From Eledone cirrhosa (lineage: Eukaryota): a stretch of 64,000 nucleotides of DNA. The notes below the pieces were generated by a model. That model did not search any database, had not been told where the DNA came from, and worked only from the letters and a program-made list of their open reading frames with translations. Shown here in pieces: positions 11,370-37,020 of this stretch. A program made the translations under genes and the position numbers. Location of the stretch: assembly GCA_964016885.1 (NCBI GenBank), contig OZ024741.1:324446001-324510000 (forward strand), given 5' to 3'. Numbering within the stretch: position 1 is the stretch's first letter; each line of letters begins with the position of its first letter.

Positions 11370-13007
11370 TCTAGAATTAGTATCACCCAAAGTTAACGTA
11401 GAAACCTCACACATACTCAACTACCCTATTTTCCAAAAGAACTTTAGGAAGGTGTCCCTTTCCTCTCCATATTTTCCAGCCTACAGGGTCATGGTCAAAG
11501 TAGACCAATCCACTAGTGTCATTCACGCTGCATTCATCCACCTTGTAAGAAATGAACAGTCGGGGGCAGCACTTCCCTGGCTTATCTCAATGTCCTTTCC
11601 AAGCGGAATTTATATATACAATATTTGATGACATCGGCATATGTCGACGCAGCCCTTCCACGTCAAGGTTCGAGCGGGATGTACTACAACAGCTTCAGCT
11701 TCCGCAGTAGTAGGTCGAGAGACAGTACGTATAGAAGGGTGGACAGAGCACAACTTTGAGGGGTGGAGCGCGTGATTTGGAACGGTTCCGATAGGTGGCT
11801 ATTTACTATGACCACCGAGGTGATGCAGTTGTGCATTCCAGCCTCTGGAGACAGGTCCGATGCTAGCTAACTTGAGGGAAAACTCCATATATCAATGGTC
11901 CACCCTATAGGAAGATTTCGATTGATCCAAATTGATAAGAGCCCCGCCGAAGCTAAGTTTACTGTCTACACTTTCTATGATGTAACGCACGAAGTGGAAG
12001 TTGTCGTGTTTGGATCTGGTCGCGATTGCGCAAGTTTGCGTCTCTACCACCCGACTCCTGACGTCAAGCGCCAACCTCGTTGCTAGCACATTGTCCAAAA
12101 TCTTAAACTCTGTGTTTAGCAGAGTTATGGGCCGGAAATTATTCATAACATCCCCCTTCTTCTTACCTTTCCTCATTAGCGTTACTACGCCCCCGACTTG
12201 TAGAACTGGCAATACTCACATTCTGCTGCCAGTTACAGTAGACGACTTCGAGGAGATTGGAGATCAAATCTGGCATACGTAAAGCTCGTAGAGTAGATTA
12301 CCCAAAGAGTTATTTGCGCCTCGTAGAGCCGAACATGGCTTCCTATATCTCGGCTGCTATTATTGGCTTCCCGTAGCAATCTGCATCAGTTTCCGAGTAT
12401 CGCAGCAGGCTGTCGATATAGGAAGTGTAGCCTACTAGCGCATCCAATCCCACAGCATGCCTCAAACAGTCATGCAAATTCCTACTGAAAAGCTGCATAC
12501 ATCTGTCTAGAATTGAGCAGCACCAGCCCGTCACGGTTCATCCAAAACCGAATTGCGGCTTCGTTCCCACTCACCACTGCCACTTGGGCCCATCGAACCG
12601 CTTTCGTTCCATCGTTCCATCGCTGAAATTTATAAGTTCTCATAAGCTGCACGTTTTCTAAAAATGGTGAAGAGAAAGAACAACTATATCGTAAATAGTA
12701 TAACCGCCCTTTCTGTTAAAATTAACTCCACAAGATTTGATAGCTCTCCTATCGATTTCAAATTAAGAGGCGGCATCAATCTATTTATTGACTGGTGTTG
12801 CTGACCCAGTCAAGACAAGCAGTAAGTATCAAGAAACAAACCCACAATAAACATAAAACGGTAAAGAAAATCACCAACATGAATTGACGCAATGACTGCT
12901 ACAACACCACCACCTCTCCGTAATCTACCTTAGAAGCATTTGAATAAGCACCAATTTCAAACAACAAAATCTTCAACCCCCAACTCCACTGCCTTAGTGG
13001 CAGCCAG
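11370..13007 (-). mobile_element. Degenerate, internally deleted Tx1-like element
   Basis: NFRPITLLNTEFKIL..LINLDQSK, a YADD-like segment near 11635 and C-terminal similarity to the 19.4-25.5 kb element. Assigning 12620-13007 as its 5' part is inferred from the adjoining (AAT)n. Confidence 0.7.
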
Positions 13008-13060
13008 AATAATAATAATAATAATAATAATAATAATAATAATAATAATAATAATAATAA

Positions 13061-15930
13061 TTGACATCCTAAATTTAGTGGTAGATGAGTTGAACAATGA
13101 TAGTGGGAGACCTATGAACCTAAGATTTGTAGACAGGAAAAAGTTAAAAGAAACAACAGCTAAGGTAAACAAAGTCATCCCATACCTTGAGGCGAGGAGT
13201 CTTCACCAGTGCAACAATATCCTCAAAGCAACAGCAAATACGGTGAGGAAACTACTTGGTATAAAAGCGAGAGGAAACAACAGACAAGAAAGAGCAGAGC
13301 CGTGGTGGAAGAAGCGACTGAGTGGGCAAATCGGGGAAATGAGAAATGACATAGGAAAGCTTGAGTCACTACTGAATGGGACACTAAAAAACATAGGCAC
13401 TAAAAATAGACTGGAAATAAAATACAAAACTAGGAGTAAAAAGCTAAATATTATCATAGAGGAATTGAAGCAACGCATTGTAGCAAAGAGTGCCAAAATC
13501 AGGCGATACGAGAACAGAGTCAGTCAGTATAAACAGAACCGCATGTTCGACAACAACCAGAAGATGCTGTTTGGACAGCTTGAGGGGAAAGAAAGAGGCA
13601 CCGACTTGATCCCTGGGGCGGAACAAGCTAAAACATTCTGGAGAGGAATATGGGAGCAGGATGTTAGACACAATGCCCAGGCAGGGTGGATTGAGACAGT
13701 ACAGAGGGAGATCGGTGAGCAGGCACAGCAACAGACTGATTTGAGTATCACAGTTGAAACTCTTAAGGGGCAAGCCAAAAAACTAACCAACTGGAAATCA
13801 CCAGGCCCAGATGGTGTGCAGGGGTATTGGATTAAACATTTAACATCCCTCCACCCGAAGCTGACGGCCATGTTCAATGACTGCTTGGTGTCGGGTGAGG
13901 TGCCAGAGTGGTTGACAAAAGGTACCACAGTTCTGATAATGAAAGACCGAATCAAGGGTAATGATGTTACCAACTATAGACCTATCACATGTCTGCCCGT
14001 AATGTGGAAACTGTTGACGAGCATTGTGTCTGAGGAAATCTACCATCACCTCCACACAAACAACTTGTTGCCGGACGAACAGAAAGGATGCCGAAAGAAG
14101 TCACGTGGTACAAAGGACCAGTTGCTTATTGATAAGATGGTAATGGGGAATTGCAGGAGGAGACACACTGATCTTGCCATGGGATGGATAGACTACAGAA
14201 AGGCATTTGACATGGTGCCTCATTCCTGGATCACCAAAAGCCTGGAGATCTTCAGGGTGGCAGATAACATCAGAGAGTTGCTGGGCAGGAGTATGGGGTC
14301 CTGGGAGACAGAGTTGACATCAACTGGAGTATCCTTGGGAAGCGTGAAGATCAAGAGAGGTATCTTCCAGGGAGATAGCCTGTCCCCTCTGTTGTTTGTC
14401 CTTGCCCTGATGCCCTTGACCATTATGCTGCGAAAAGTGAGAGCAGGATACAAGTTGGGAAGGGGAGAGCTTACCATCAATCACCTCCTCTTCATGGACG
14501 ATCTTAAGCTCTTCGGGAAAAGTGAGAAGGAGTTGGATGTGCTTGTTGACACTGTCCGTATTTTCAGCAGTGATATATGTATGCAGTTTGGTATTGGTAA
14601 ATGTGGAGTCATTGTGATGAGGAGGGGTAGGTTGAGCAGAAGTAACGGGATCCAGATACCAACAGGTGAGATGATAAAGGAAATTGACTCTGAGGAAGGA
14701 TACAAGTATTTGGGCGTTCTGGAGGCTGATGGCATAAAGAACAAAAAAATGAAGGAATTGTTAAGAACTGAATACATTCGGAGAGTAAGGAGCGTATTGA
14801 AGTCACATCTGAACAGCAGAAATGCCATAAGCGCAGTAAATTCCCGAGCTGTGTCTATTATTAGGTACAGTGCGGGAATTCTGAGATGGAATGTTGCTGA
14901 ACAAAAAGAAATGGATAGGAAGACTAGGAAGCTATTGACTATCTACAACATGTTCCACAAGAGGAGTGATGTCGATAGACTCTACCTAAGGAGATCTGAG
15001 GGTGGAAGAGGTCTTATCAGCATAGAGGACTGTGTTCAGATGGAGAAAAACAACCTATACAAATACGTGACCTATAGTAAGGAGCCAATGCTCAGAGCTG
15101 TACTGAAGGAGGGGAGAGTAGGCCAGGGGATACCCAAGGAGGAAATAACATCAAGGAGGAAGAGCAGCCTTAAGGGAAAATCCCTTCATAGTACCTTCTT
15201 TGAGAAAACTGAATTTAGAGATCCACAGACATGGAACTGGTTGAGAAGAGGAGACCTCAAAAAGGCTACAGAAGGAATGCTAATGGCTGCGCAGGAGCAG
15301 GCCCTCAAAACGAAGTGGTTGAAGCACCATATCTACAAGGAGGAGGCTAGCCCACTGTGCAGGATCTGTGGAGAGAGAGAGGAGACTGTGGCTCACATTG
15401 TGTCCGAGTGTAAACACCTAGCCCAGACCCACTATAAGGGCTGGAGACACGATGTGATGGGCAGGGTGATCCACTGGCACCTGTGCAAAGTAAACAATCT
15501 ACCACATTCTGAGAAATGGTATGAGCATAGGCCAGAGGCGGTGATGGAGAACAGTCAGGTGAAGGTGCTGTGGGATTTTAGGATACAGACGGACAAAAAA
15601 CTGGAACACAATAGACCTGACCTGGTGGTTGTGGACAAAGAAAAAAGATCGTGCCTGATTGTGGATGTGGCCTGCCCGTTCGACACGAGAGTGCAAGAGA
15701 AGGAGAGGGAGAAAATTAACCGATACCAGGACCTAAAGTGGGAGGTGAAAAGGATTTGGAACTGCCATGAAGTCAAAGTGATCCCGATTGTCATAGGCGC
15801 ACTGGGGACTATCTCCAAAGGTTTCCAGGGATGGTTAAAGAAAATCGGCCCCTTCACGCTTTTTGGAACGCTTCAAAAGGCATGCTTGCTTGGAACGGCA
15901 AGAACCCTCCGATACGTCCTGAATATCTGA
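13061..15930 (+). CDS. RT + CCHC knuckle + restriction-like endonuclease (uninterrupted but N-truncated)
   Basis: NWKSPGPDG, YRPITCL, WIDYRKAFD, GIFQGDSLSP, LFMDD, CRICGEREETVAHIVSEC, RHD, RPDLVVVD..VDVACP..EKINRY. The poly-Ile start in the ORF track is the microsatellite. Confidence 0.9.
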
Positions 15931-35695: not shown

Positions 35696-36500
35696 AAAAA
35701 TGGCAAGAAAAGCCTCTGTATGCAAATTAACCAGACTGAAATCGGAGACTGAGGGGCTGATTATCAGCACAAGATCAGTGTCTGCAAGCAAAAAATCATC
35801 AAGCCAACATCATAAAAATTGGATACAACCCATTATGCCGTGTATGTAAAAAAACAACGAGAGACCATTGATCATATAATCTCCATGTGCAGTCCTATAG
35901 CTCCGACCGAATACCTAAACATGCACGACAGAGCAGTACAATACATACATTGGGTAATATGTAAACATTTTGACCTGTCCCATTAAAAGGATTAGTGAGA
36001 GTATCAACCACCTTCCGTACTTGAAAAAGATCACATCTCAATTTTGTGGTACTTTAGCATCCAAATAGACCGAAAAATAGAAGAGGGTGAGCTTGCTAAT
36101 TGACATGACCGTTCTTACAGACAAGAATGTATCTATAAAAACATTTGAAAAATTGAGCAAGTATAAGGACCTGGAGATAGAAATTTGAAAAATGTGGAAG
36201 TTGAGAACTAAAACAATACCAGTGGTTGTAGGCGTTCTAGGAATGATACTTAATGATTACTTATCCCAAATCCCAGGAAACCCGCGTATAGAAGAAATAC
36301 AAAAGATAGTACTAATGGTAACTGCCCATATACTAATGAAGATTCTGTCAATATAAATACATGACAAGTGTAAATACCTAAAGATGCACGTGTGTCTGTA
36401 TGTGTTTTTTCCTGAACATGGTGGATTTTATTGTCTCTTGAGGTCACTGGTTGTGACTTGGAGATAATTCGTATGACCATAAAGCAAGATAAATGAAAAC
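35696..36500 (+). mobile_element. Diverged R4/Dong family B 3' copy with internal deletions
   Basis: Aligns by eye to ~18480-19390. Confidence 0.85.
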
Positions 36501-36510
36501 AGAAAATAAT

Positions 36511-37020
36511 GATTTGTTTATTATCCACACAAGGCTCACATTAAGGAAACATTAAAGATGTTACAGGACGATATAGTGTGGGTTTTTGTTTGTGTAAAAT
36601 AAAATTTATAAAAGAGACTAAGAAAATAAACATTTAAAACAAACATAACAACTTCCCCAAAGTTGAGGAGACTCTAGGTGTCACTTGTGTAGAAATTCCA
36701 CAAAAGCCACGGTCACCCGGTCCGCTAGGGGGGCAAAGTGTCCTCTCCCAGTCTTTCTACCCCAATCTACAGACGTATGCTCAAGACAGGCCTATTTACA
36801 CGAATCATGCTTGCTACACTCACTCACTTTTTAACAAATTGGTTGGTTCAAGTGAAATCTGAAGAAGTTAATCAGGGTTTCGCCAAAGAGGAAGATGGCT
36901 GCCTTCAACCCTTTCAATCGCGTCCCCCACACAACCTCATTTGCCATGGCCACCAGGCAAATAATAACTGTCTATCCTTCCCCTTTAAGATATTCTCTTC
37001 TCTGAGAAGGCAAATCCTCT
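36511..37020 (-). mobile_element. Tx1-like 3' fragment
   Basis: Matches 19448-19970 (ORF2 C-terminus and 3' UTR). Confidence 0.78.

Follow-up and report, generated by a model that had tools for sequence, protein, structure and literature searches.

What makes retrotransposons of two unrelated endonuclease classes accumulate, copy against copy, around runs of a single simple repeat? The question is raised by a 25-kb part of a 64,000-nucleotide stretch of Eledone cirrhosa contig OZ024741.1 (the window), in which a preliminary description had seen RLE and APE elements and SINEs mostly joined by (AAT)n, and had proposed a self-expanding locus on whose repeat both kinds of enzyme had converged. 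All ten AAT runs that it named are present (Table 1), and its four RLE families hold, with eight copies in place of seven if the 247-bp family B stub is counted (A1, the stub, B1, B2, A2, C, D and B3). Where four Tx1-like pieces had been counted, three are borne out by protein match (11370–12616, 19448–25510 and 36510–37020), and two (34516–34740 and 30401–30715) carry a 3′-end signature only; for the last of these, neither a tblastn search against intact Tx1 ORF2 nor a DNA search gave a match. The pile-up is real, but the unbroken run-linked chain extends only from about 12630 to 30715, and runs of at least three units are missing at the old left Tx1 piece (best match elsewhere 74%; a run at neither end), at family C (likewise neither end), at the 5′ end of D and at the B3/Tx1 joint.

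AAT runs of at least four units number seven in the 17.4 kb from 13008 to 30400, versus 20 in 200 kb of background. As had been described, the copies range in age from open frames to decayed remnants (best matches 69–99.9%), and by best-match identity the young copies lie inside and the old ones outside. The RT-RLE frames are open in A1 and B1 and disrupted in A2, C, D and B3. In the full-length Tx1-like element, ORF1 has an open frame (23143–25185), ORF2 is in several pieces, and a sister copy elsewhere in the genome is intact. Two genomic matches of the unclassified repeat at 12630 continue into an AAT run, and it is possible that this repeat was the seed of the chain.

Table 1. Repeats and retrotransposon copies at positions 11370–37020 of the window.
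Position	Strand	Feature	Match or basis
11370–12616	-	Old Tx1-like ORF2 fragment, internal deletion	tblastn 43–60% vs intact Tx1 ORF2
12630–13007	+	Unclassified old repeat, ends at AAT run	22 genomic matches, 66–83% excluding self
13008–13061	+	(AAT)18	
13062–16004	+	A1, family A, 5′-truncated, open RT-CCHC-RLE frame	Best match elsewhere 99.9%
16005–16028	+	(AAT)8	
16029–16275	+	Family B 3′ stub, 247 bp	99.3% to B1 3′ end
16276–16359	+	(AAT)28	
16360–19396	+	B1, family B, 5′-truncated, open RT-CCHC-RLE frame	
19397–19447	+	(AAT)17, B1/Tx1 tail-to-tail joint	
19448–25510	-	Full-length Tx1-like element, ORF1 and ORF2	Protein match
25511–25617	+	(AAT)35, Tx1/B2 head-to-head joint	
25618–26552	+	B2, family B, 5′-truncated	98.2% to B1
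26553–26564	+	(AAT)4	
26565–30376	+	A2, family A, truncated within 5′ UTR, stops and frameshifts	93.3% to A1; 5′ part matches full-length A
30377–30400	+	(AAT)8	
30401–30715	-	Possible 3′ end of an old Tx1-type copy	Signature at the terminus only
30716–30860	+	SINE fragment, against chain polarity, without run	
30950–34090	+	Family C, decayed RLE-type element	tblastn 30–54% to A and B
34092–34515	-	Two SINE copies, (AAT)3 at 34296, (AAT)4 at 34504	
34516–34740	-	Old Tx1-type 3′ end	3′ UTR signature only; recurs in other loci
34740–35684	+	Family D, decayed RLE-type 3′ part, then (AAT)3 at 35686	
35695–36505	+	B3, family B, older	84% to B2
36510–37020	-	3′ fragment of an old Tx1-like copy, meeting B3 tail-to-tail	tblastn 50–65%

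Families A and B are 39% identical in protein and have a 5′ head in common. Pfam matches RVT_1 only, the sole PDB matches are R2 proteins (E 1e-25 to 1e-18), and in both families the RT is followed by a CCHC knuckle and by the RHD, RPD..D and K..KY motifs of a PD-(D/E)xK restriction-like endonuclease, with no APE domain. R2, NeSL and Utopia carry N-terminal CCHH zinc fingers; by eye, the N-terminal frame of a single full-length copy from each of the two families has none. A quick RT tree placed A and B among relatives without element names. From domain order, motifs and insertion into TAA repeats on their own sense strand, the two families are best classed as Dong/R4-like. At the A/B 5′ junction, no HDV-like ribozyme approached the Rfam threshold and descriptor scores were no better than those of shuffles; ribozyme and tRNA scans, one of them on a stretch lacking the shared 5′ head, were empty, and viral contigs held no relative of family B. 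The Tx1-like family has two ORFs, the first with a CCHC knuckle and the second with an APE-RT-zinc finger order. Its best PDB match is human L1 ORF2 (E 2e-51), with R2 at 1e-21, and the best named full-domain match of ORF2 is 'Transposon TX1 149 kDa protein' (32%, E 1e-85), which points to an L1-group RT with Tx1 as closest named relative; kinship with Koshi is a lead only. In 80 metagenome loci with Tx1/L1-like genes, a four-unit AAT/ATT run occurred in four, none at a contig end, so that no wider ATT-targeting lineage was found there, a result that says little because these relatives are so distant (22–37%).

Whether the repeat is a target or simply a tail is best judged at 5′ ends, where random flanks had been named as the outcome fatal to the proposal. 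With a run taken as at least three units, true 5′ truncations start at a run in 24 of 30 A/B copies and 10 of 21 Tx1 copies, far above the 1.0% background (813/79,520 positions). By family, the tallies are 13/15 for A and 11/15 for B (each from 30 copies, after excluding 12 run-offs and three copies with an internal deletion), 8/13 in a second B set, and 5/9 and 5/12 in two Tx1 sets. Full-length Tx1 starts are preceded by TTATTATT in 2,340 of 2,413 cases (97%), and the best-matching Tx1 5′ ends have an ATT run in 30 of 30 with differing flanks beyond it. The figure of 97% probably overstates enzyme specificity, since only about half the truncated copies lie at pure runs, others beginning at short ATTAT seeds or at CTT or GTT runs. 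The share of flanks at the repeat exceeds the 20% at which a target preference is recognized in PMC4494074. These counts support the run as a preferred target of both element classes, beyond its role as a tail.

The junctions also follow a rule of polarity that the preliminary description did not contain: RLE elements read along (AAT)n, and Tx1 along (ATT)n. A and B lie at AAT in 184 junctions and Tx1 at ATT in 87, with none reversed among these 271, which are not all independent; a later set holds one exception, a truncated Tx1 copy (L376) that follows an AAT run. Given this rule, RLE and APE enzymes would prime on opposite strands. The SINE usually reads along (ATT)n, like Tx1. Evidence that the target was there before insertion comes from duplications beginning ATTAT around SINE copies: 21 of 32 show a non-simple match, versus 7 of 32 in a mismatched control, and 14 versus none are of at least 15 bases. 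One Tx1 copy has a duplication of 14–15 bases; at A/B copies, the search is uninformative inside pure runs.

The RLE families and the APE Tx1-like family occupy (AAT)n/(ATT)n in opposite orientations, and we regard it as likely that they enter the repeat by nicking opposite strands and leave a run on both sides. Under the standard model of target-primed reverse transcription, RLE elements would prime on the (ATT)n strand and APE elements on the (AAT)n strand, and the Tx1 nick would fall at a T/A step, because its 3′ junction begins ATT. Tail and target-site duplication together would regenerate the run, so that chains could grow from inside, the run left on each side of one insertion taking up the next element. 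The SINE is a probable passenger of machinery of the Tx1 type, with a less strict requirement, for ATTAT. Of the convergence that had been proposed, the preference of both classes for the run stands, and opposite strands are used; convergence of the enzymes themselves is a proposal only, because annealing of RNA tails could account for some of the preference, and in truncated Tx1 copies the preference is far less strict than in full-length ones.

Annealing of RNA to DNA might even be the main cause, a reading that we hold to be possible but doubtful. A loosely T/A-specific endonuclease would nick widely, and (AUU)n or (AAU)n RNA ends would select the runs, joining matching repeats at the 3′ end and, in full-length copies, at the 5′ end as well, with no convergence of enzymes. 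The excess of runs at full-length over truncated Tx1 copies (97% versus about 48%), the fixed ATT register at full-length Tx1 starts and the SINE's need for ATTAT alone are all consistent with it, as are AAC variants common to family A tails, which suggest that these are partly templated, and a mildly raised microhomology at A/B truncations (mean 1.5 versus 0.9 bases, n = 33). Yet A/B truncated copies whose homology is just 0–2 bases nonetheless begin at long runs (29/33), so that repeat units also lie beyond the nick, on the flank with which the tail does not pair, and in TRAS1/SART1 it is endonuclease swaps that are reported to set the target (PMC1919474).

The same arrangement is also seen genome-wide. 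Exact pattern searches of the genome for the 3′ motifs find 8,193 copies of family A, 4,683 of B and 6,537 of the Tx1-like family. Clustering, which the preliminary description had wanted examined, exceeds expectation: gaps between A copies are below 10 kb in 26 of 99 cases (1.7 expected), all 26 on the same strand, and 8 of 38 Tx1 starts have an A end no more than 10 kb away (1.3 expected), all eight on the opposite strand. A member of the same guild lies beyond the run at 25/30 Tx1 5′ ends and 22/30 A 3′ ends, and at 13/20 background runs; in a further set it does so at 18/30 B 3′ ends and 12/30 Tx1 3′ ends. Contig C1 carries, in its initial 57 Mb, five further chains of 21–32 kb each, and the window locus is a typical example of what is found across the genome. 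That such chains grow mainly by unequal crossing-over, or by transduction through read-through from run to run, in place of serial insertion, is improbable. Two places speak for it: at 55.44–55.45 Mb of C1 a unit of Tx1 plus B stub is repeated with the same breakpoint, and on contig C3 Tx1 starts recur every ~32 kb and have near-identical flanks. Both indicate duplication and not a new insertion, because the B stubs beside the two tandem Tx1 copies (99% identical) are themselves identical and the C3 cluster is periodic. Each copy in the window, by contrast, differs in truncation point and age, and no multi-element unit was found to repeat there at high identity. The idea of a self-expanding locus is thus retained in that copies cluster and adjoin each other's runs, with two amendments: tandem duplication occasionally enlarges chains as well, and the locus is not special.

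That the array was assembled in error, by joining at simple repeats, is very unlikely. The young core is spanned by none of the short-read contigs listed, a list that excludes matches at runs and that likewise holds no empty-allele joint; but contigs of single-copy depth, from a sample that may be the source of the assembly itself, extend over the two old flanks and run through the D-(AAT)3-B3 joint, and the same junction types recur on many contigs under a strand rule so strict that mis-joining would not produce it. Least credible is passive build-up in a tolerant region with AAT as a mere 3′ tail. Such accumulation is suggested for Drosophila Waldo (PMC3812793) and is compatible with family D, which at many of 25 loci (~80% identity) ends in a short AAT tail and shows no clear 5′ runs; the 5′ junction counts and the strand rule contradict it for families A and B and for the young Tx1-like one.

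Each ingredient of the pattern has precedent: Dong targeting of TAA and Tx1 targeting of microsatellites, both rightly given as known in the preliminary description, and RLE/APE convergence (Utopia/Keno) are already published. In the literature searched, no Tx1 family is reported to use (ATT)n jointly with Dong. The list of Tx1 targets would gain one, and two unrelated endonucleases that naturally meet on the same duplex are useful for asking whether the site is picked by the enzyme or by the RNA tail. Sequence-directed re-insertion with positive feedback would be a concrete, testable cause of local transposon hotspots, as opposed to passive build-up. The polarity rule aids annotation, and AAT microsatellite markers in such genomes will often lie at repeat ends. 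It is tempting to go further, and we lean slightly towards the view that an undescribed Tx1 lineage moved onto the (ATT)n strand opposite Dong-type (AAT)n and that both, with a SINE passenger, make most of their own target, most genomic AAT microsatellites and hundreds of strand-polarised chains, which could explain many octopus-like transposon hotspots.

TRAS1 and SART1 lie in opposite orientation. Like the families described here, they share one simple repeat, the silkworm telomeric repeat (PMC1919474); unlike them, both are R1-clade APE elements confined to chromosome ends. Dong-type elements, a snail family included, are described as targeting TAA microsatellites (PMC3812793), and a Dong element follows TAA repeats on its own sense strand, going by the primer given in PMC3774820. 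Families A and B resemble Bombyx Dong, DongAg and DongBg in this target and in their single RT-CCHC-RLE frame; they differ in that two lineages share a 5′ head, number thousands of copies and are interleaved with an APE family. Among Tx1-clade elements, Kibi targets (TC)n, Koshi (TTC)n and crocodilian Tx1 (TTCC)n/(TTTC)n (PMC4494074). The present family is likewise an APE-type, two-ORF element that prefers a microsatellite, with some copies at CTT runs, but its unit, (ATT)n, is absent from the targets named in that source, its host is an invertebrate and its run is shared with RLE elements. Finally, the RLE element Utopia and Keno, an APE element of the Tx1 clade, are reported to have evolved in parallel onto U2 snRNA genes, with tandem insertions (PMC4640811). 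There, as here, both endonuclease classes reached one target; Utopia and Keno share 3′ flank and strand, whereas the elements of E. cirrhosa occupy opposite strands of a simple repeat that their insertion likely regenerates.

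Retroelements of two endonuclease classes share a microsatellite niche of (AAT)n/(ATT)n runs in this animal genome of 2.996 Gb, and this part of the preliminary description is real and well supported by junction, neighbour and strand counts. To it can be added a polarity rule that the description lacked. At pure-run junctions, 184 ends of the RLE-bearing, Dong/R4-like families A and B read AAT and 87 ends of the APE-bearing, Tx1-like family read ATT, with none reversed (copies at least 88% identical; a single run can count from both sides); one exception, L376, appeared in a later set. 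Even without reading flanks, and taking for each motif the first 100 of its listed places on contig C1, A-A neighbours less than 10 kb apart lay on the same strand in 26 of 26 cases and close Tx1-Tx1 neighbours in 17 of 18, while close Tx1-A pairs lay on opposite strands (8/8). Among these places, 12 of 38 Tx1 starts had an A neighbour within 20 kb, whereas shifted controls averaged 3.0 and reached at most 11 in 10,000. Given opposite polarity and the standard priming model, the RLE and Tx1 enzymes would nick opposite strands, and at the enzyme level they may have converged on one target.

An intact sister copy of the window's Tx1 possesses APE, RT and zinc-finger domains, with L1 as its nearest solved structure; an Octopus sinensis gene model gave one short match to the Tx1 protein (64% over 5% of its length), which, together with the type of SINE, hints at a possibly octopus-like host.

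Another means of producing such junctions would be a mere 3′ tail of AAT with random 5′ flanks. Exact-motif copies in the genome numbered 8,193 (A 3′), 4,683 (B 3′), 6,537 (Tx1 3′) and 2,413 (Tx1 5′), and TTATTATT precedes 2,340 of these 2,413 Tx1 starts. Full-length A and B starts had AAT runs, sometimes AAG runs, upstream in most of 30 loci. Truncated copies are a stricter test of targeting than full-length starts. For A and B, 30 loci per family were taken in order of position and counted by eye, with run-offs and internal deletions set aside; true truncations began at a run of at least 3 units in 13 of 15 cases for A and 11 of 15 for B, and in 8 of 13 in a best-match B set. For Tx1 they did so in 5 of 9 and 5 of 12 in two sets, most of the rest starting from short ATTAT seeds or at runs of CTT or GTT; run positions make up 1.0% of 20 arbitrary 10-kb background stretches. 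Truncation and start counts thus argue against the tail explanation for families A and B and for the young Tx1 family; family D showed AAT tails but no clear runs at its 5′ ends. The gap between full-length (97%) and truncated (~48%) Tx1 copies at runs suggests that full-length Tx1 RNA, or the 5′ joining step, contributes ATT.

Runs commonly lead to a further member of the guild (RLE families, Tx1 and SINE), which was found beyond the run at 25/30 Tx1 starts, 22/30 A ends, 18/30 B ends and 12/30 Tx1 ends; 13 of 20 background runs of at least 4 units also adjoin one. Copies of the abundant SINE share Tx1 polarity at many loci, their ends resemble those of the Tx1 families, and their duplications, mostly of 14-21 bases, begin with ATTAT. 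A seed in Tx1 polarity was thus already in place before insertion, and a Tx1-SINE partnership seems possible. Only 7 of 20 background SINE copies had a near-perfect run of 3 units in the 5′ flank, so the SINE is looser in its target. One Tx1 copy had a duplication of 14-15 bases.

The locus itself is ordinary for the genome, as five of six inspected clusters, picked for crowded motifs rather than at random, were similar chains of ~21-32 kb. Part of the chain length is duplication. The C3 array, with near-identical A/B flanks, points to segmental duplication of one chain in tandem, and a repeated unit on C1 reflects either duplication or 3′ transduction. Mis-assembly is generally unlikely, since the strand rule holds genome-wide, though it may still affect this locus. 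Short-read contigs of one sample, possibly the one from which the genome was assembled, match the two old flanks at single-copy depth, differing at 0-6 positions, and also run through the joint of D, run and B3; none of those listed spans the young core.

All ten AAT runs of the preliminary description were recovered at their positions. Its four RLE families (there "about four") also stood, with eight pieces rather than seven copies; in place of four Tx1-like pieces there were three confirmed by protein and two with just a Tx1-like end. Three SINE pieces lie within the region. Best matches elsewhere reached 97-99.9% for core elements versus 69-88% for flanking ones, compatible with growth from inside. 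Four open frames (168-515 codons), with no Pfam match, are possibly exons or repeats.

Features of the window (G000:C2:324446001-324510000) and of other loci
Feature	Position	Strand	Observation
Retroelement-like short 3′ fragment	10974-11340		Direct repeat of ~11 bases at borders; presumably RTE type
Run-linked chain	~12630-30715		Older ends linked just in part
SINE	34092-34495		Tx1 polarity
SINE	37118-37296		Tx1 polarity
Further old Tx1-like fragment	48260-50262	+	(ATT)7 at 50242; obeys polarity rule
Open frame	45-1592
Open frame	7557-8856
Open frame	55697-56275
Open frame	58111-58812
C3 array (L002-L005, L011, L012)	G000:C3:14628234-14764294		Tx1 starts every ~32 kb
C1 chain (L160-L165)	C1 55.42-55.46 Mb		32 kb; five full-length Tx1 copies, ORF2 open in most; Tx1 + antisense B stub unit twice, breakpoint identical
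AAG/CTT-run loci	L030, L041, L134, L139, L146, L187, L192, L203, L206, L354, L380, L382

At the protein level A and B share 39% identity, and both carry CCHC and RLE motifs. A quick tree joined B, at support 99, to an unnamed protein; coral and shrimp entries are among the relatives, and A sits on a long unresolved branch. These relatives were gathered with B as query, which biases the tree. Full-length A and B have a common 5′ head of 400-800 bases, 76-93% identical (L169-L174, L166-L168 and L180-L209, contig C1), the motif of which occurs at 1,426 genomic places. One A/B pair agrees at 92.6% across 750 bases, more than the A copy in it agrees with other members of family A, which suggests that the lineages have exchanged 5′ UTRs.

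Several parts of this picture have precedents. TAA has been reported as the target of three Dong elements, classed there with APE types (PMC3812793), which differs from the assignment of Dong to the R4 lineage (PMC3774820). Tx1 elements on TC/TTC-type repeats (PMC4494074) and parallel use of U2 by RLE and APE elements (PMC4640811) are established; PMC1919474, PMC3747384, PMC8967140 and PMC4758252 also belong to the literature covered. A recent octopus annotation lists, among recently active LINEs, five Dong-R4 families (1,129 insertions) and 13 L1-Tx1 families (421), and describes hotspots; the parts of its main text consulted make no mention of insertion targets. No paper was found on a Tx1 family at AAT/ATT or on a shared polarised niche, in a coverage that stopped short of Repbase, Dfam, Kojima and Fujiwara (2004) and the figure labels of PMC4494074, and an earlier description of either is possible. 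Finally, AAG/CTT runs are also occupied by both classes with polarity unchanged, RLE elements along AAG and Tx1 along CTT, a pattern that brings to mind Koshi, which targets (TTC)n.
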